NCBI GenBank assembly: GCA_009729775.1
Contig: GCA_009729775.1_4081.1
DNA from: Escherichia coli
GTDB taxonomy: Bacteria; Pseudomonadota; Gammaproteobacteria; Enterobacterales; Enterobacteriaceae
DNA length: 64,000 bases
Direction: 5' to 3' (one strand)
How positions within the stretch are numbered: position 1 is the first letter of the stretch; every line of letters starts with the position of its first letter. The notes under the pieces were generated by a model, which saw only the letters and a program-made list of their open reading frames with translations, did not search any database and had not been told where the DNA came from. Positions 43,724 through 60,056 of this stretch are shown in pieces. The position numbers and the translations under genes are program-made.

Positions 43724-44061
43724 TAGTACCTCGCATCAGGAACTTTAGCACGTAACTTATGAACGACTGGGAACAACAACAAACTTACATATGCAATAGT
43801 TGAACCCCAATAGAATACTAATACAATTGGTTCACCATTAGAACGGAAACCTCTACTAATCATTGAGTAGTGAATAATAGGCATAATCATCGCCATACCA
43901 AACCATGCGTGTAATTTTAATTGCAGCATGTTATCAGCGATGAATACTGAAATTGGTCGTTTGAAGAACCACATCAGAAAGTAGAATCCAGCACTAATAA
44001 TATAGTACATGGTACTAACTTTCATATACCACGGCAGTAAGTGTAAAAAATATTCCATCAT
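43723..44061 (-). CDS. small membrane protein paralog (112 aa)
   Basis: WFFKRP motif after first helix. Confidence 0.6.
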   Translation of the reverse strand: MMEYFLHLLPWYMKVSTMYYIISAGFYFLMWFFKRPISVFIADNMLQLKLHAWFGMAMIMPIIHYSMISRGFRSNGEPIVLVFYWGSTIAYVSLLLFPVVHKLRAKVPDARY

Positions 44062-44405
44062 TCCTCCGGTATCTTGTTTCGAAGGTCAATCATAACACAA
44101 CAAAGTTTAATGATCAAGTGAAAAACTACACATATCATACCAATTGTTCCATAAACGACTGAAAAAGCAGGTAGTGCTTTTCCGGCTAGAACAGCCACAA
44201 TACATGCAATCAATGTTGATGCAAACAACGATTGATTAATGAAAGAATTCATAAAATCTTCACCATTACGCTTATAGAATTGTCGTTTAAAATACCATCC
44301 TAGAAACATAACTACCCAAAATGTTACATAACCTGTTAGAATAATCCCTGCAATTGAATGTGCAACTGGACTACTCCTTAAAAACTCAAGATAAGCTTCA
44401 AACAT
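44058..44405 (-). CDS. small membrane protein paralog (115 aa)
   Basis: WYFKRQFYKRNGEDF motif. Confidence 0.6.
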   Translation of the reverse strand: MFEAYLEFLRSSPVAHSIAGIILTGYVTFWVVMFLGWYFKRQFYKRNGEDFMNSFINQSLFASTLIACIVAVLAGKALPAFSVVYGTIGMICVVFHLIIKLCCVMIDLRNKIPEE

Positions 44406-44743
44406 TAGAAGTCTCCGCGAATTTTATCTCTACCATGAATAATGAGATGGATTAAGTATACAACTAACCAAATGAACAACCCAAAGAATACAATATATTG
44501 TGAGATTGAGTTCAAGTGAGGATTGGCACAATAAATTAAGTGTGCCATAAGACCAACAATTGCAAACAAACCTTGAACAAGTGTGTAAAGAACTAGTGAT
44601 GAATTCCTCACTGGATACAGTTTAAAAACAATTTTCTTTTTAAAATACCACAGTACTACAACCAGTGCATGATAAAAGAAAAAACCAAAAAGATAAATCA
44701 AAGTAATACTAAGCATTGTATCTGACTTAAAGAATGTTAACAT
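44405..44743 (-). CDS. small membrane protein paralog (112 aa)
   Basis: Close paralog of 44743-45084 (WYFKKKIVFKLY, C-terminal RDKIRGDF). Confidence 0.65.
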   Translation of the reverse strand: MLTFFKSDTMLSITLIYLFGFFFYHALVVVLWYFKKKIVFKLYPVRNSSLVLYTLVQGLFAIVGLMAHLIYCANPHLNSISQYIVFFGLFIWLVVYLIHLIIHGRDKIRGDF

Positions 44744-45084
44744 TAGAAATCCCCTTTAATTCTATCACGAGCTTTAATAATAAAGTATATGCTACATACC
44801 AACAACCACACCATTAGACCTGAAAACACAAGATATTGTGTAATGTGTGGTGTATTATCAATTTGTAACATGTAAATCGCATATGTCATCACACCAAATA
44901 AAATAAACCCACCTTGGATAATACTATATAAAACTAAGACTACATTATCATCCGAATACAATTTAAAAACAATTTTCCTTTTAAAATACCACAGACTAAT
45001 TACAATTGAATGATAACACAAAAATACAAACATGTAAATTAGCGTGATACCAAGCATTGTATCTGAATTAAAAAACTCAAGCAT
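44743..45084 (-). CDS. small membrane protein paralog (113 aa)
   Basis: WYFKRKIVFKLY, C-terminal RDRIKGDF. Confidence 0.65.
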   Translation of the reverse strand: MLEFFNSDTMLGITLIYMFVFLCYHSIVISLWYFKRKIVFKLYSDDNVVLVLYSIIQGGFILFGVMTYAIYMLQIDNTPHITQYLVFSGLMVWLLVCSIYFIIKARDRIKGDF

Positions 45085-45151: not shown

Positions 45152-45925
45152 TTAAATTTTCTCAAGGAACATATTATCTGCCATTGACTCCCAATCGTAT
45201 GGGAATTTATTATACAGACCAGCGATAAGTACTGGCATACGCAGAGAAGGTGAACGCAGCTTTTCTTCGTTGTTCAGCATCCAGTTTAAGATAGCTTTAC
45301 AACCATTTTTATTAACCCCATTGTTCTCAAGAATATTAGTCTTGTTCATGATGTTCTCAATGTGAATCATAACTTCTTCGTTAGTGAACAGTTGAAGATC
45401 AACAAAGATACTACGAGTAATCAGTGCATCAATGTGTGGTGCTAAACTGCTTTTACCTTTAGCAATCTGTGACAGGTTTTTGTTCGTCAGGAAGATTACC
45501 TTCCCACGGAATTCAAACTGCTTAGGAATACCCTGCTGTTCCAGGTACTTCCCAGAAGTTGCATAAGATACAACCCGCTTCTCTGAAGTATCCAGTACTG
45601 CTTTGAGCAAGTCAATGTTGGTTTCATCGCTGAAGATATCAACGTCATCAAGTAACAGTACTGATGCGGCATGACGTGAACGATACAGTGCTTCGTACAG
45701 ACCCATAGTGGTTACTTTACCGCTGATCTTTTTATAGTCGATTTCAAAGTTATCATCAGCTTTCTGTAAACGCTGGTCAACGTTATAAGTTTTACCAACG
45801 CCACCTTTACCAGATACAATCAGGGAATTGATTGAATTAGCTTGGGTATCAAGTAAACATTCCAAAGCTGCCATCATACTGTTGAAGTTCTTTTCGATTT
45901 GGATTGCTTTCTCTGTACGGGTCAT
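45152..45925 (-). CDS. P-loop NTPase (257 aa), deviant Walker A KGGVGKT
   Basis: SGKGGVGKTY Walker A, LLLDDVD Walker B-like, FLTN sensor-like; ParA/MinD-like or AAA-like, exact family not resolved. Confidence 0.55.
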   Translation of the reverse strand: MTRTEKAIQIEKNFNSMMAALECLLDTQANSINSLIVSGKGGVGKTYNVDQRLQKADDNFEIDYKKISGKVTTMGLYEALYRSRHAASVLLLDDVDIFSDETNIDLLKAVLDTSEKRVVSYATSGKYLEQQGIPKQFEFRGKVIFLTNKNLSQIAKGKSSLAPHIDALITRSIFVDLQLFTNEEVMIHIENIMNKTNILENNGVNKNGCKAILNWMLNNEEKLRSPSLRMPVLIAGLYNKFPYDWESMADNMFLEKI

Positions 45926-45953
45926 GTCTTTATCCTCTTGAGTTGATGAAATG

Positions 45954-45990
45954 ATTATAGCAAAAAAGGCCGACTAGTGTCAACCCTTTT
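45954..45990 (-). terminator. dual terminator/promoter stem-loop cassette
   Basis: On minus strand: hairpin GGGTTGACactaGTCGGCC plus U-run; TTGACA inside the stem and TATAAT 18 nt downstream. Confidence 0.6.
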
Positions 45991-46131
45991 GTTTAGCTAT
46001 TTGGTCACCAACTCACCAGTACATTGATACTCATATGTGACTTGTGTTTGTACACATCCTAATGGTCGTTGATCTGAACACGTAGTCGTTGAGCCGCCGA
46101 AAATCTCGGCTCCTTCATATCCCCATTTCTG

Positions 46132-46326
46132 TCAACGTTTAACTGCACTATTCAATCCTTGATTTAAATCAATTACTGGAATTTCGGAACGTTGGTCAAA
46201 TGCGTATCCTAATCTGATTACACCATCAGCTTTACTCCCACCAACTGGATATAAATCTTTTTTTACTGTACATCCAGACATAATTGTCACACCTACTAAT
46301 ACTAAAATGGATAACATCTTTTTCAT
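46132..46326 (-). CDS. small lipoprotein (64 aa)
   Basis: Signal peptide with lipobox-like VTIMSGC. Confidence 0.55.
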   Translation of the reverse strand: MKKMLSILVLVGVTIMSGCTVKKDLYPVGGSKADGVIRLGYAFDQRSEIPVIDLNQGLNSAVKR

Positions 46327-46341
46327 TATGATTCCTCATTT

Positions 46342-47481
46342 TTATAAAATGACTTCACCAAAAATACCATTGATATCACGTTCAATGATGTATTCACCTT
46401 CATGTTCAGCTAAGAACTTTTTAATGGCTTCGTTAACTTTAGGACGATGAATGTTGTTGAATGTTTCAGTGCAACCATCTCCCTTTTCATAATAACCTTT
46501 ATTATATAGTTTACCACATAACGCAATTGTATGTATTATTATTTCCAATTCTCTAGCAAGTTTCCCACCCACATTCTTATGAAATAAAATGGAAATTTCA
46601 TTACTCCAAAAATTATCTACTTTATATATTTTTTTATAAGATAAGTTTTGTGGACTTAATCTTGCTTTAATAGTTTTGTTTGTAATACCAGCTTTATCCG
46701 AATTTTTTGCATAATCATTGTGAATATAAAATCTTCCAGGCTTGGAAGTTTTAAATCCTTTTACTGCACACGTGGGACAACCAGAACCAGACAGATGTGA
46801 ATTTGGTGTTTGTTGAAATTCACCATGTTCTTTGCATATTATAATAGAGGTTACTTGGTTGTTAATGTAGTCATATAAAGAATAATCATACTTATTTCCG
46901 TGTATAAGATGTGATTTTTTTATAAATTCACCTAAAGTTTGTTTTAAAGTTTGTTTCGTGCATTCTTGACAACCAATTTTACCAGTAGCTAAGTCAGTAA
47001 TTGTGGGTTTTTTTATATCACCACAATCATTACATACTACTTCAATTTTAGTTCTACTAGGAAGTCTAGAGTTAAACGAAGTTATTCCACTATAAGTAAA
47101 TTTATCATAACCATATTTTTTGTTGATGACACTAATATGATTAATGGTGTAATATGGAATATTAATAATATTGTAAAAAATCTTACCATTAAATCCCTGC
47201 CTAATAAAATTCGTGCAGGTGGCTCCAATAACTAACATACCATCGTTATTCACTACAAGTTTGGTTTTTGATTTAGATATATAATCTTGTGATCTATTGA
47301 TATAGAATCCAAGAACTCTTGGATCATTTATTTCACCCATAATACTAATAGGATCTTGAGCAATGTTGGATTTTTTTACAAAATTTATATCTTCGGCTTT
47401 CATCCACTCAAAAAGCATTCCATGCTCTTCATAAAAATAAACTTTTTCACCATCTTCATTAAAATAGTACTGTTCAAACAT
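46342..47481 (-). CDS. Zn-ribbon protein with GIY-YIG-like segment, possible nuclease / homing-endonuclease-like (379 aa)
   Basis: Duplicated KYxYD...C-x2-C / GCPTC cysteine motifs and GRFYI-x10-AGIT-x6-R resembling GIY-YIG; function tentative. Confidence 0.35.
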   Translation of the reverse strand: MFEQYYFNEDGEKVYFYEEHGMLFEWMKAEDINFVKKSNIAQDPISIMGEINDPRVLGFYINRSQDYISKSKTKLVVNNDGMLVIGATCTNFIRQGFNGKIFYNIINIPYYTINHISVINKKYGYDKFTYSGITSFNSRLPSRTKIEVVCNDCGDIKKPTITDLATGKIGCQECTKQTLKQTLGEFIKKSHLIHGNKYDYSLYDYINNQVTSIIICKEHGEFQQTPNSHLSGSGCPTCAVKGFKTSKPGRFYIHNDYAKNSDKAGITNKTIKARLSPQNLSYKKIYKVDNFWSNEISILFHKNVGGKLARELEIIIHTIALCGKLYNKGYYEKGDGCTETFNNIHRPKVNEAIKKFLAEHEGEYIIERDINGIFGEVIL

Positions 47482-47710
47482 TACTTAAAACTCCTTTCCA
47501 GTACTGAACCCGTCCAGCACCATTAATCTTAGCCTGAATCTTATCTTTTTCGACAAGACCTTCTTTGTAATCGATGGAAGTATTATCGCACTTAATTACA
47601 TCCAAGTCAAGTACTTCTTGGGTAGTTAATGATGTATTATCTGCGATTTGTTGTAGAGTAATTACATCAGTACCGAAGTATTCTGCTAAACGTATAAAAG
47701 ATAGTTTCAT
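47474..47710 (-). CDS. small HTH-like protein (78 aa)
   Basis: ITLQQIADNTSLTTQEVLDL resembles a helix-turn-helix; overlaps start of the 379-aa ORF. Confidence 0.4.
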   Translation of the reverse strand: MKLSFIRLAEYFGTDVITLQQIADNTSLTTQEVLDLDVIKCDNTSIDYKEGLVEKDKIQAKINGAGRVQYWKGVLSNV

Positions 47711-47734
47711 GTATTACCTCTCGTTTCGATAAAA

Positions 47735-47767
47735 TAATTATAGCAAAAAGGGCTGACCGAAGTCAAC
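47735..47767 (-). terminator. dual terminator/promoter stem-loop cassette
   Basis: GGGTTGACttcgGTCAGCCC with UUCG loop, U-run, TTGACT in stem and TATAAT 18 nt downstream (minus strand). Confidence 0.6.
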
Positions 47768-47775
47768 CCTTTATG

Positions 47776-48135
47776 TTATTCTAAGTCACTCATAGTACTA
47801 ATAGTTAATCCCATTTCTTCTGCAATGTTGCATAGCAAACCAACAGCATTACGAAGAATATCAGTGTTGTCCACCGAGAATGATGAGTTTTCATTTACAG
47901 TTGAAGACTCAATGTAGTACTCAAAATAACGAGAAGTTGAACGCACAACTTTAACACCTTCATACTTCTGTAGTTCAGAGTTGACACGTTCGATGAGTAA
48001 ATCTTCCAGTGCTCGATAGTCACCATTCATTCCACGTTTCCACCCATCAGCAGGACGGAAATAAAAAGTTTTTGTACGTTGAATTGTTGAGATTGTTAGT
48101 GGGTTGTATTCCGCGATTTCACTTAAAGATGTCAT
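47776..48135 (-). CDS. hypothetical protein (119 aa)
   Basis: ORF track. Confidence 0.6.
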   Translation of the reverse strand: MTSLSEIAEYNPLTISTIQRTKTFYFRPADGWKRGMNGDYRALEDLLIERVNSELQKYEGVKVVRSTSRYFEYYIESSTVNENSSFSVDNTDILRNAVGLLCNIAEEMGLTISTMSDLE

Positions 48136-48241
48136 GTTGTATTCCTCATTTGGTGATGTACATAATACAGAAATATAGAACAGGTGTCAATGTTTATACC
48201 TCAAATATCCAAATACTTTGGTGTAGCACATACTACATCAA

Positions 48242-48474: not shown

Positions 48475-48990
48475 TTAATAATTATTCATTTCATCTTTGA
48501 TTTGTTCTTCAATTTCGTCAAACATATCAGTACTAGATTCTATATTACTACTTACGTTCTGCATATCTTTAACGTACTGTGGACATTCAACATCAGTAAA
48601 CTTATACCACGTAGGCTTCATCTGGAGCTTCTCAATCAAACGATCACGAGACATTTTAATCTCTGACTCCGTTGGTACGTAGTCATTACAAAACTCAGCA
48701 GGGAAGCCGCTAATGTCGTTTACTTCAGTGTTTTGAATCTTCATACCACGACGCAGACATTCGTTGACAATATCAATATGACGCTTCTGTAAGTACAGTA
48801 ACTTGTCGTAGAAAAATGTTACATGACCTGAACCTAACAGATAAGTACTGTTAATTTTGAAATCACGTACACGCTTACGTGCTTGAACGTGTTTTTGTAC
48901 AGCACCAAATACACGTGGGAGTTCACGATATTCAGCCATCAGATGTTGGTCAGCAAGTTCTTTAACGTGTACTAAGTTAATGCGTGTCAT
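48475..48990 (-). CDS. denV: endonuclease V (pyrimidine-dimer DNA glycosylase/AP lyase), T4 DenV homolog (171 aa)
   Basis: N-terminus [31 protein letters not shown]...KRVRDFKI...[10 protein letters not shown]...PTWYK is near-identical in pattern to T4 endonuclease V. Confidence 0.9.
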
Positions 48991-49018: not shown

Positions 49019-49051
49019 ATTATAGCAAAAAGGGCCGACTGAAGTCAACCC
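49019..49051 (-). terminator. dual terminator/promoter stem-loop cassette
   Basis: Hairpin GGGTTGACttcaGTCGGCCC, U-run, TTGACT-N18-TATAAT on minus strand, upstream of denV. Confidence 0.6.
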
Positions 49052-49144
49052 TTTTTTTCTTTCAATCAAACATAGTCTACCAGAATGTACCATGCGATGG
49101 TGATTAGAACAAAGAATCATACACTTCTTCATTGTTTAATCCAT

Positions 49145-51254: not shown

Positions 51255-51599
51255 CTATCGATTCGGCATATTCTTTCGTAGTCGCAAGAGAAATTCAACC
51301 ACTGACCATGTTGTAATGAAGGCTATATAAGTTGCAAGGAATCCAGTAAGAATAAATGCAACCAGCGTACTACCATTTGGGGAATCAGTTTTAATGCCGA
51401 TGACACCATCGGCTACAGTGAAACATGTAGCCATTAATGTGTAACCTACGTACAACACAAAGAAAAACTCATTCTCCATTGAAGGATAGAAACGGTTAAA
51501 CACTTTATAAAATTTAAAGTACAGTAGGATTATACCAACAAAGGCATAGAATGTAAACAGTGTTGTTATAATATATGAGATTAGGTTCAAATTATACAT
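51255..51599 (-). CDS. small membrane protein paralog (about 114 aa)
   Basis: LYFKFYKVFNRFYP motif; C-terminal LRLRKNMPNR. Confidence 0.6.
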   Translation of the reverse strand: MYNLNLISYIITTLFTFYAFVGIILLYFKFYKVFNRFYPSMENEFFFVLYVGYTLMATCFTVADGVIGIKTDSPNGSTLVAFILTGFLATYIAFITTWSVVEFLLRLRKNMPNR

Positions 51600-51600
51600 A

Positions 51601-51948
51601 TCAACGCTCCGGTAGATTATCACGTAATGTTTTAATTCGATGATACATTTTCATACCAATATTACCAAAGATACCATATCCAAGTACTAAAATGTATGCA
51701 ATAAGCATAGTAATAATTACTATAGTGCCAAAACTATAATGTACACTACTGATACCCATTGTAGTTTCAACGATTATTTGAGAAACTGAAAGAATCAAAA
51801 GTACAACTACAATTGGATGATTTGGGTACATTCGGTTGAACAACGTTTTGTACTTAAAGAAGCACAGTACTCCACCGAATAAGAAGTACACAATGTAAAT
51901 GCAAGCAACAGCATAGGCAAACATGTTAGTGTAATAAATCATTACCAA
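51601..51948 (-). CDS. small membrane protein paralog (115 aa)
   Basis: CFFKYKTLFNRMYP; C-terminal LRDNLPER. Confidence 0.6.
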   Translation of the reverse strand: MVMIYYTNMFAYAVACIYIVYFLFGGVLCFFKYKTLFNRMYPNHPIVVVLLILSVSQIIVETTMGISSVHYSFGTIVIITMLIAYILVLGYGIFGNIGMKMYHRIKTLRDNLPER

Positions 51949-51951
51949 TCC

Positions 51952-52290
51952 TTACTTTTCAGGGATATTAGAACGCCATATATCAATGCGATGAACTAGT
52001 CCAAAGAACAACCATACTGGAACGGCAGCTATCATAACAAAAAATGAAAACCCAGTCAACACCGATACCAGATTTAATTCATCAGTACTATACCCACATA
52101 TCAGTACTTCTAATATTCCCCACGTACATGCACAAAACATCAAGAATGAAATTGGGGCATCATAGTAGATACGTTCATATAAAGTAGTGTATCGGAAGAA
52201 TGCAATAATGTAGCAAAACATATAATACACCCAAACCAAAGATACTACATAAAATGATACTTTGTTTATTAATTCAAAATATTGTTCCAT
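51952..52290 (-). CDS. small membrane protein paralog (112 aa)
   Basis: AFFRYTTLYERIYY; C-terminal WRSNIPEK. Confidence 0.6.
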   Translation of the reverse strand: MEQYFELINKVSFYVVSLVWVYYMFCYIIAFFRYTTLYERIYYDAPISFLMFCACTWGILEVLICGYSTDELNLVSVLTGFSFFVMIAAVPVWLFFGLVHRIDIWRSNIPEK

Positions 52291-53719: not shown

Positions 53720-53753
53720 ATCATAACAAAAAAGGCTGACCGAAGTCAACCCT
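53720..53753 (-). terminator. dual terminator/promoter stem-loop cassette
   Basis: GGTTGACttcgGTCAGCC hairpin, U-run, TTGACT-N18-TATGAT on minus strand. Confidence 0.55.
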
Positions 53754-53760
53754 TTTATTA

Positions 53761-59838: not shown

Positions 59839-59870
59839 ATTATAACAAAAAAGGCTGACCGAAGTCAACC
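59839..59870 (-). terminator. dual terminator/promoter stem-loop cassette
   Basis: GGTTGACttcgGTCAGCC hairpin; TTGACT-N18-TATAAT on minus; stop codon of upstream gene lies in the stem. Confidence 0.55.
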
Positions 59871-60056
59871 TTTGTTTTGAAGTTCTTGAACTAATTGTCG
59901 TACTTCGTTAATATTTTTACACTGCTTTACAGTGAAGTAATCATACTTACGACCATAGGTTCTTGGGTCATCACCTTCCATATACTGCTGCACATCAAAG
60001 ATTTGTAAGTAGGGATGCTGCATAACACGAATATTACCACCTTGATAAATCAACAT
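59865..60056 (-). CDS. hypothetical protein (about 63 aa)
   Basis: Start adjusted to MLIYQGGNIRV... Confidence 0.45.
   Translation of the reverse strand: MLIYQGGNIRVMQHPYLQIFDVQQYMEGDDPRTYGRKYDYFTVKQCKNINEVRQLVQELQNKG

Follow-up and report, generated by a model that had tools for sequence, protein, structure and literature searches.

A putative free-standing T5orf172-type homing endonuclease gene in an accessory cassette of an Asteriusvirus-type jumbo coliphage

The 64,000-nucleotide stretch of DNA analysed here (the window), from Escherichia coli assembly GCA_009729775.1, is that of a jumbo E. coli phage of the Asteriusvirus type (PBECO4/121Q-like), and the region under study shares 93% identity with PBECO4 and with other Asteriusvirus genomes. 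With a probability of about 80%, we conclude that positions 45991-47727 are an accessory cassette of this phage, and that its core is a putative free-standing homing endonuclease gene (HEG) of the 'T5orf172 HEG' class (46342..47481, minus strand, 379 aa). This gene is an unexceptional representative of a class described recently and not a new kind of system, and the ATPase gene and the 78-aa ORF found beside it are its neighbours, not demonstrated partners. The three ORFs that an earlier note had reported from the sequence alone do lie at the coordinates it gave, all on the minus strand, and the motifs it named are also where it placed them.

The endonuclease starts with a region (aa 1-105; 47167-47481, minus strand as are all parts of the gene) that has no assigned fold, and the structure model has low confidence over the first ~100 residues. 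Two zinc modules follow, the first (aa 106-178; 46948-47166) of the form CxxC...CxxC, with CNDC at aa 150-153 and CQEC at 171-174, and the second (aa 179-240; 46762-46947) of the form CxxH...CxxC, with CKEH at 216-219 and CPTC at 235-238. The remainder (aa 241-379; 46345-46761) is a T5orf172/MUG113-like nuclease domain of the GIY-YIG superfamily, which carries GRFYI (249-253) and then KAGIT (263-267). For the zinc modules, the match to DUF4379 (E 0.0034) is below the cut-off of that model and the match to DUF723 is weak, while PF05265 is a precomputed assignment on P0001, a protein 99% identical to the endonuclease. Zinc-repeat homologues of the endonuclease number 1308, and both modules align with relatives positive for CapR/DUF723. 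Two zinc-finger modules of the CapR/DUF723/DUF4379 kind are therefore found N-terminal to the nuclease domain, and published T5orf172 HEGs have this order of domains, zinc-finger repeats and then T5orf172 (Barth, Dunham and Seed 2023, PMC10448857).

The relationship of the nuclease domain to known families was only apparent through remote homologues. None of the Pfam models for T5orf172, MUG113 and GIY-YIG matched the full protein directly, even at E<=1, and neither T5orf172 (PF10544) nor MUG113 (PF13455) matched the nuclease domain alone at E<=0.01; likewise, direct NCBIfam and PDB-sequence searches gave nothing decisive, and a word-indexed search for homologues of the isolated C-terminal domain yielded one protein. 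The step that ties this domain to T5orf172/MUG113 was an exhaustive HMMER search among 1.84 billion representatives, which retrieved 45 remote homologues of aa 240-379. Scanning 41 of them, we found MUG113 in 18 and T5orf172 in 14, in the same protein region and above the Pfam cut-offs. For instance, the region of P0183 aligned to the domain profile scores 29.4 bits with T5orf172 (cut-off 20) and 32.1 with MUG113 (cut-off 22.3), and that of P0195 scores 27.6 bits with T5orf172 (cut-off 20). An hhalign comparison of the nuclease domain with the Pfam-positive domains gave a probability of 98.3% (E 1.5e-14), a test that is not fully independent because these templates had been found with the query's own profile. 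The HMM search proposed in the earlier note for a GIY-YIG nuclease thus has a divided outcome, with transitive and profile homology to T5orf172/MUG113 but without a direct match to a Pfam model.

The catalytic domain has the alpha/beta fold of GIY-YIG nucleases. The tyrosine of the first motif ('GIY') is kept as Y252 in GRFYI, in at least 90% of 41 aligned sequences; the tyrosine of the second motif ('YIG') is absent, and K263-A-G-I-T267 stands in its place, with K, G, I and T near-invariant among the T5orf172-like relatives aligned. R274, which comes after the second motif, E313, in the helix that follows, and E339, within G-x-T-E-x-F, are conserved in at least 90% of the aligned relatives, so that the Tyr, Arg and Glu positions usual in the superfamily are kept. 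From the order of the motifs rather than a residue-level superposition, R274 and E313 may be the equivalents of I-TevI R27 and E75. Fold, profile-profile and transitive Pfam results therefore agree on a protein with zinc ribbons and a GIY-YIG-like domain, as the earlier note had proposed.

Comparison of close relatives indicated that the cassette occupies a polymorphic site at a fixed genomic location. The whole block, 45991..47727 on the minus strand, is missing from SP27 and UE-S1, including the 78-aa gene, as defined by blastn junctions and by nucleotide alignments of both junctions. SD-15_S21 has no HEG but does have the 78-aa gene; taking this phage as a reference, the endonuclease-specific part of the block spans about 45991-47481 (minus strand). 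The junctions of these HEG-less states (SP27, UE-S1 and SD-15_S21) are defined to the nucleotide. Five phages (G17, EcMJ, ELP-22, phAPEC6 and 121Q) carry other endonuclease genes at the site, four of them at the same junction, with 121Q diverging a few bases earlier; in G17, ELP-22, phAPEC6 and the HEG-less SD-15_S21, divergence begins immediately after GTTTTAAGTAA. WPEC5 has a decayed copy, consisting of fragmented remnants. The exact gene was found in only one other phage among 50,697 records, PBECO4, where it is 99.7% identical and adjoins an ATPase allele that is 59% identical at the protein level; the related endonuclease family, in turn, reaches up to 18 matching places per genome among the records listed. 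The endonucleases of G17 and ELP-22 belong to phrog_9084, a PHROGs family different from that of the window gene. An assignment of their C-terminal domains to Vsr/DUF559, considered for an E-x-DG-x-x-H-like motif, was discarded, as Pfam and PDB searches yielded no match. In all, the search for the block in related genomes suggested by the earlier note uncovered absent, HEG-less, replaced and decayed states; together with the fold, profile-profile and transitive Pfam results, this presence/absence and replacement polymorphism bears out its proposal of a mobile insertion of the homing endonuclease type.

The block is bracketed by composite hairpin/sigma70 promoter repeats, similar to the promoter-early stem-loops (PeSL) that T4-type phages carry as mobile regulatory cassettes (Arbiol et al. 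2010, PMC2839356; Comeau et al. 2014, PMC4122927). The upstream copy (47737..47771, minus strand) has the structure AAGGGTTGAC-TTCG-GTCAGCCCTTTTT-GCTATAAT, with a promoter match of 11/12 and a TG extension, and likely drives both the 78-aa gene and the endonuclease. The downstream copy (45954..45988, minus strand) has a promoter match of 12/12; it is predicted to drive the ATPase gene and forms the insertion's right boundary, and all relatives re-align from here onward. The window contains five copies, against none expected by chance, with promoter matches of 11-12/12 and the TG extension, and equivalent hairpins are annotated as terminators in G17. The copies sit exactly at indel boundaries, the upstream one being the left repeat of the SP27/UE-S1 indel. 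As judged from sequence, they are PeSL-type elements, that is, stem-loops over a sigma70 promoter that recur at the edges of cassettes and indels.

These repeats suggest a different explanation, according to which the cassette moves or is lost solely by homologous recombination between them, in the manner of PeSL, and the endonuclease is passive cargo or inactive. The block does lie between two copies that are 66% identical over 76 nt and nearly perfect over a 35-nt core, the empty state of SP27 and UE-S1 contains exactly one copy, and similar PeSL-flanked indels occur in T4-type phages (PMC2839356, PMC4122927). However, we consider this explanation unlikely, since it does not account for the several different endonucleases found at one junction, with the 78-aa gene on one side and the downstream repeat on the other, nor for SD-15_S21, in which the endonuclease alone is missing and the 78-aa gene is kept.

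The 78-aa gene (47474..47710, minus strand) belongs to phrog_34150, an uncharacterised phage family that is its sole match, and was found in 29 phage records, all Asteriusvirus-like and 82-97% identical. Its label as HTH-like in the earlier note found no support, with no HTH profile or structure retrieved from Pfam (E<=10), NCBIfam or PDB sequences; all known homologues are at least 82% identical, so that no useful profile could be built. The translational overlap that had been pointed out is real, the gene covering the start of the endonuclease by 8 nt (47474-47481). There is no strong promoter match directly upstream of the endonuclease gene, whose single sigma70 match (11/12) sits within its own coding sequence (46838-46865), and its ribosome-binding site is a GGAG within the 3' end of the 78-aa gene. 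Because of this lack of a strong upstream promoter, the ATG/stop overlap and the position of the GGAG, the endonuclease is most likely translated by coupling; its transcript would most likely start at the 47737-47771 repeat. The 78-aa gene is a separate accessory gene, and the HEG appears to be translationally coupled to it.

At least five different endonuclease genes are joined via overlapping stop/start codons to one ~96%-identical 78-aa gene. Their C-terminal domain is GIY-YIG-like in some and unrelated in others, and some of them have nothing in common with the window gene beyond the first ~32 codons and a C-terminal tail that is similar. Tentatively, and as a rather unlikely reading, the site could be a hot spot for in-place 'endonuclease exchange', with the 78-aa protein either serving as a platform dedicated to expression or acting as a functional partner, for example in specificity, immunity or regulation. 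If this were true, the nuclease in the slot would depend on the 78-aa protein, and domains would be swapped in situ by recombination within the ORF.

A fourth ORF in the block, which the earlier note did not include, as it did not include the flanking repeats, is a YecR-like lipoprotein gene (45997..46326, minus strand), a piece of cargo that follows the endonuclease and precedes the downstream repeat. Read through its stop, it matches the Pfam YecR model over positions 1-73 of 73 with 70.5 bits (cut-off 27); because it is split by an in-frame TGA (46132-46134), it is probably a pseudogene. We found no YecR-like gene at the equivalent position in PBECO4 or in any other phage record. A recent capture of this fragment from E. 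coli was also contemplated and rejected, since none of 5,426 E. coli genomes has a DNA match to it.

On the other side of the downstream repeat, adjoining the insertion site and outside the mobile block, lies a resident AAA+ ATPase gene (phrog_1250; 45152..45925, minus strand, 257 aa). The earlier note had read its P-loop as a deviant Walker A, and had considered a replication/partition module, in which the ATPase, the zinc-ribbon protein and the small ORF would combine as a ParA-like ATPase and a DNA-binding partner. The P-loop does happen to contain KGGVGKT, in GKGGVGKT at aa 39-46 (45788-45811), and the ATPase has weak sequence matches (E 0.01-0.1) to AAA+ initiator/loader proteins of the ORC/Cdc6, Hda, DnaI and TnsC types. 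Nevertheless, we regard such a module as extremely improbable. The lysine at K40 is not conserved among 33 homologues, in which G42, G44 and K45 never vary, G39 hardly does, and the consensus is GxxGxGKT; D93 and D94, in LLLDDVD (aa 90-96; 45638-45658), are also invariant, as are N148, R171 and R229. Direct Pfam, NCBIfam and PDB-sequence searches gave nothing decisive; among the homologues there were weak Pfam matches to AAA_16 (25/33, below cut-off) and AAA_22 (16/33), and the match to CbiA/ParA comprises the P-loop only (aa 35-46, E 0.55). The AlphaFold2 model (pLDDT 92.8) retrieved 50 Foldseek PDB matches at E<=1e-3, all of them AAA+ proteins and none ParA/MinD, with probability 1.00 versus CbbQ, RuvB, DnaA, Hda, RFC, ClpX and ORC and TM-scores of 0.45-0.57. 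The protein has the alpha/beta core, Walker A, Walker B, sensor 1 and C-terminal helical lid of AAA+ ATPases, and neither a conserved signature lysine nor the fold of ParA/MinD.

Genome comparisons also argue against a partition module. The ATPase gene is present in 11 of 11 related loci, whether or not the endonuclease and the small ORF accompany it, as two allele classes 59% identical that follow neither the presence nor the type of the endonuclease, and the same HEG is found beside both; iteron- or centromere-like repeats were not found. We had also considered this single, highly divergent gene at the site as the target of the endonuclease, and this lack of correlation leaves a target in the ATPase gene without support.

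Our preferred reading, a mobile HEG, suggests how the site is occupied. The protein would probably recognise a long DNA site through its N-terminal region and the two CapR/DUF723-type zinc-finger modules, and would cut it with the divergent GIY-YIG-superfamily domain. In a mixed infection with a HEG-less relative, the empty allele would be cut near the junction of the 78-aa gene and the ATPase promoter, and repair of the break by recombination from the HEG-carrying genome would copy the gene in, along with adjacent DNA such as the YecR-like pseudogene and flanking markers. As suggested by the junctions, homologous recombination between the bracketing repeats may be another way, independent of the nuclease, in which the whole cassette is gained or lost, and the AAA+ ATPase would be a resident phage gene that happens to flank the hot spot. 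Against this reading, both types of empty site are explained equally well by deletion between repeats.

The endonuclease-like gene might instead have ceased to be a selfish homing element and, through co-option, now serve the phage as a nuclease with sequence specificity or a regulator that binds DNA, directed for example at satellites, at competing phages or at elements of the host. There is documented precedent for such reuse of T5orf172 HEG domains, ICP1 Odn and PLE CapR having evolved from parts of such genes (PMC10448857, PMC8263062); besides, the ORF is uninterrupted and its PBECO4 copy is 99.7% identical although the flanks differ, and its catalytic-type residues are conserved. Yet the locus acts as a classic HEG hot spot, with presence/absence, unrelated replacement endonucleases and the decayed WPEC5 copy, and the gene is rare, with one other phage genome, which is unexpected for a broadly useful function; we thus see co-option as improbable.

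These results provide an annotation for genes that appear in public records as 'hypothetical', 'HNH endonuclease', 'exonuclease ABC C subunit', 'thioredoxin' or 'clamp loader', and widen the T5orf172-type class with a divergent subfamily, in jumbo Asteriusvirus phages, that current Pfam models miss. They also define a well-resolved endonuclease hot spot with empty, occupied, replaced and decayed states, at the boundary with AAA+ alleles 59% identical, which could be used as a natural system to study how HEGs turn over and mosaicism arises in phages that are candidates for therapy.

Among known systems, the closest resemblance is to the T5orf172 HEGs of ICP1, T5-like and Vibrio phages (PMC10448857), which share with the window gene the tandem CapR/DUF723/DUF4379 modules followed by a C-terminal T5orf172-like domain, the free-standing position between phage genes at a genetic-exchange boundary, and evidence of endonuclease genes shuffling domains. 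Unlike them, the window protein has an extra N-terminal region of ~100 aa and a nuclease domain too divergent for the Pfam T5orf172/MUG113 models, which differs from its relatives in a ~9-residue insertion between the Arg and Glu motifs and a ~35-residue C-terminal extension; its host is a jumbo Asteriusvirus, although the data set of PMC10448857 may include such phages. Classical GIY-YIG HEGs (I-TevI, T4 SegA-G) and SLX1 differ in that their nuclease domain is N-terminal, whereas it is C-terminal in the window protein, in which the 'YIG' tyrosine is replaced by K-x-G-I-T and DNA binding is predicted via treble-clef zinc fingers instead of NUMOD/HTH modules. As for the repeats, they resemble PeSL in being a composite hairpin/terminator over a sigma70 promoter, repeated upstream of successive small gene cassettes and exactly at indel boundaries of close relatives; unlike PeSL, they have another sequence and reside in an Asteriusvirus jumbo phage, and recombination is read here from the junctions. 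Finally, the ATPase shares with the AAA+ ATPases of the MoxR/CbbQ, RuvB, DnaA/Hda, ORC/Cdc6 and clamp-loader clades the alpha/beta core with helical lid, Walker A GxxGxGKT, the Walker B DD, the sensor-1 Asn N148 and the conserved R171 and R229. Its TM-scores of only about 0.5 fit no one clade and, unlike these ATPases, it is a minimal stand-alone protein of 257 aa without a partner domain.

The site occupied by the endonuclease gene (46342-47481, minus strand; 379 aa) is polymorphic among related phages. The earlier note had put a mobile, GIY-YIG-like homing endonuclease as its first reading, and this is borne out by the architecture and fold of the protein and by the junctions and polymorphism of the site. 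At about 35% G+C the window is AT-rich; the genes in the region of the block are on the minus strand. The segment 44700-48200 matches Escherichia phages assigned to Asteriusvirus, with up to 93–97% identity (matches include PBECO4, 121Q, SP27, G17 and phAPEC6); these are jumbo phages with genomes of about 350 kb. No single phage record covers 80% of the segment, a first hint of mosaicism. The three ORFs first noticed here exist with their motifs in place: GKGGVGKT (residues 39-46) and LLLDDVD (90-96) in the ATPase (45152-45925, minus strand), and CNDC...CQEC, CKEH...CPTC, GRFYI and KAGIT in the endonuclease, whose start has a GGAG ahead and is overlapped by 8 nt by the 78-aa ORF (47474-47710, minus strand). 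The latter product matches uncharacterised phrog_34150 only, and its supposed HTH was not found by profile or PDB-sequence searches.

The endonuclease gene is missing from SP27, UE-S1 and Salmonella phage SD-15_S21, and several other phages have a different occupant at the site. In SP27 and UE-S1 the 119-aa gene leads directly to the ATPase gene, with one repeat copy in between; SD-15_S21 keeps the 78-aa gene, which leads straight into the repeat. Among 50,697 phage records, only PBECO4 has the exact gene of the window, and has it at this site. The occupant in 121Q is a 487-aa protein carrying CapR fingers and a nuclease domain of the same subfamily (C-terminus 61% identical), and in phAPEC6 a 628-aa protein of the same PHROG as the window endonuclease; G17 and EcMJ (372 aa; phrog_9084, scanned on G17 only) and ELP-22 (474 aa; phrog_9084) have proteins with a different C-terminal domain. 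WPEC5 contains five short ORFs of 180-345 bp (locus L010, 3730-5229), which look like a decayed endonuclease gene, the 3' part of the fragments being 62% identical in protein to the C-terminus of the window endonuclease. Both junctions were fixed by nucleotide alignments. At the left, ...GGAAAGGAGTTTTAAGTAA is common to the window, SD-15_S21, G17, ELP-22 and phAPEC6, whose sequences part immediately after it, and in 121Q the divergence begins a few bases before this point, after ...GGAAAGG; at the right, all six aligned genomes (window, SD-15_S21, SP27, PBECO4, G17 and ELP-22) re-converge at AAAAGGGTTGAC of the downstream repeat.

The G17 gene (locus L008, 3730-4848; in EcMJ, by DNA match, L011, 3730-4845) and the window gene have about 95 nt (32 codons) of their 5' end in common (window 47387-47481), reading MFEQYY.NEDGEKVYF.EE.G..FEWMK. 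Their C-terminal tails are also similar, and their central and nuclease domains are unrelated (phrog_9084 versus phrog_681). The common 5' end and similar tail suggest that endonuclease genes at this site have recombined inside their ORFs.

The endonuclease matches phrog_681 'endonuclease' in PHROGs (3.5e-48), and Pfam detects a weak treble-clef zinc finger and nothing else. A homologue search was dominated by proteins with many DUF723/DUF4379 zinc-finger repeats, some of them terminating in Vsr-like (PF04480) or T5orf172/MUG113 domains, and retrieved only three full-length relatives; the wider family reaches 619 phage records, and among the records listed a single genome has as many as 18 matching places. 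With a profile of residues 236-379, an exhaustive HMMER search found 45 representatives in 1.84 billion, seven below 1e-10. MUG113 (18/41) and T5orf172 (14/41) were found among the scanned nuclease-domain relatives, above Pfam cut-offs and in the region aligning to the query. Comparison of the subfamily with five such domains in hhalign gave a probability of 98.3% (E 1.5e-14), in a test that is not fully independent because the templates came from the query's own profile.

The AlphaFold2 model of the endonuclease (41 sequences) is confident from residue ~110 on and poor at residues 29-102. Its only coherent Foldseek matches, which are weak, are to SLX1; other GIY-YIG enzymes gave values of 4.8 (PD-T4-3), 4.7 (EF2693 and I-TevI), 4.6 (UvrC), 4.4 (T4 EndoII) and 4.0 (Eco29kI) against the model. 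Relatives conserve Y252, K263-x-G-I-T267, R274, E313 and G336-x-x-E339; judged by motif order, they correspond to the Tyr, Arg and Glu characteristic of the GIY-YIG superfamily, whose second tyrosine is replaced in the window endonuclease as well as in the aligned T5orf172-like relatives. Fold, profile and residue evidence therefore indicate that 'GIY-YIG-like' is right at superfamily level.

The block (45991-47727, minus strand) lies between two copies of a repeat, at 47737-47771 and 45954-45988 (minus strand). The repeat, AAGGGTTGAC-loop-GTCAGCCCTTTTTGCTATAAT, is a hairpin rich in G+C and bearing a run of T; it overlaps a near-perfect match to an extended-10 sigma70 promoter. Five copies were observed in the window versus none expected by chance, the others being at 49019-49053, 53720-53754 and 59839-59873 (minus strand). 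Copies sit upstream of small gene cassettes, as composites of hairpin/terminator and promoter resembling promoter-early stem-loop (PeSL) elements.

A YecR-like lipoprotein gene (45997-46326, minus strand), split by an in-frame TGA at 46132-46134, lies in the gap between the end of the endonuclease gene and the downstream repeat. Read through this stop, it matches the full Pfam YecR model end to end (70.5 bits), and its product has a signal peptide and a lipobox-like SGC. No other phage record has a YecR-like gene at the site, PBECO4 carrying there a different small ORF of the 121Q type, and the DNA of the YecR-like gene has no match in E. coli genomes. An identical 64-aa ORF, flanked by the same genes, occurs on four public contigs. 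The interrupted gene may be a pseudogene, may be split in two, or may be expressed by readthrough of the stop.

The adjoining ATPase belongs to phrog_1250, a family of unknown function. Its Walker A had been called deviant, a description not upheld by 33 aligned homologues, in which the signature lysine varies and G42, G44 and K45 are invariant, G39 nearly so. Pfam matches in the homologues are weak and sub-threshold (AAA_16, AAA_22, AAA_14 and AAA), and the ParA/CbiA model covers just the P-loop. The AlphaFold2 model is confident (pLDDT 92.8, pTM 0.87; 33 sequences), and its Foldseek PDB matches at E<=1e-3 are all AAA+ proteins, including CbbQ, dynein AAA modules, ClpX, DnaA, RuvB, RFC/Rad24, Hda, ORC and sigma54 activators (TM ~0.45-0.57). 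D93/D94 (Walker B), N148 (sensor 1) and R171/R229 do not vary, in keeping with an AAA+ enzyme that is active and probably oligomeric.

The window is 96.8% identical to PBECO4 over 46312-48195 (endonuclease, 78-aa and 119-aa genes) and 97.3% over 42116-44755, but just 68.6% in the ATPase gene. Throughout the twelve genomes compared, the 119-aa protein and the genes flanking the ATPase are 91-100% identical, and the ATPase forms two classes with 59% protein identity between them: one in the window, WPEC3 and UE-S1, and another in PBECO4, SP27, ELP-22, phAPEC6, 121Q, SD-15_S21, G17, WPEC5 and EcMJ. The class is independent of the presence or type of endonuclease, and the ATPase is therefore neither its partner nor its demonstrated target. 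With an AAA+ fold and alleles that do not track the endonuclease, the alternative of a partition or replication module does not hold. The divergent tract begins at the upstream repeat (~45994) and ends some 200-250 nt beyond the ATPase stop (~44905-44956).

The denV gene (48475-48990, minus strand) likewise falls into two classes, ~78% identical to each other. It encodes a 171-aa pyrimidine dimer DNA glycosylase (Pfam Pyr_excise, 1.2e-14), with an acidic C-terminal extension of ~35 aa beyond residue ~133, where the PHROG profile (139 positions) stops. An annotated 259-aa 'endonuclease' of SD-15_S21 (locus L007, 2656-3435) is an in-frame fusion of the N-terminal part of denV with the 119-aa gene, the intervening region being deleted. 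Tandem paralogue arrays at 42304-45084 and 51255-52290 (minus strand), with overlapping start and stop codons, encode small hydrophobic proteins of 104-141 aa that appear to span the membrane several times; copy number varies between relatives, the copy at 44743-45084, for example, being missing in PBECO4. On the opposite strand, a 401-aa ORF (39998-41203, plus strand) has counterparts in WPEC3 and CRJP21 annotated 'regulator of chromosome condensation', that is, RCC1/ATS1-like repeats.

Domain architecture, fold, catalytic-type residue conservation, exact insertion junctions and flanking repeats are established in the window, and polymorphism, replacement and decay all occur at one site. By analogy with the seg and mob genes of T4 and with T5orf172 homing endonuclease genes (HEGs), the endonuclease would cleave the unoccupied site in the genome of a related phage infecting the same cell. 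As for free-standing HEGs, recombinational repair of the break would then copy its gene into that genome together with neighbouring markers, and its expression would depend on the promoter in the upstream repeat and on translational coupling. Independently of this, recombination between the flanking repeats would offer a way to gain or lose the cassette as a whole.

PeSL elements bracket indels in T4-type phages, and the window repeat is constructed like them (PMC2839356, PMC4122927). Nuclease genes have been observed at boundaries of genetic exchange, which fits the mosaic pattern of the window (PMC10448857). In the T5orf172 HEGs of ICP1, T5-like and other phages, a T5orf172 domain comes after zinc-finger repeats (PMC10448857). 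The window endonuclease has exactly this architecture; it is a new, divergent representative of an established class, in a kind of context already known.
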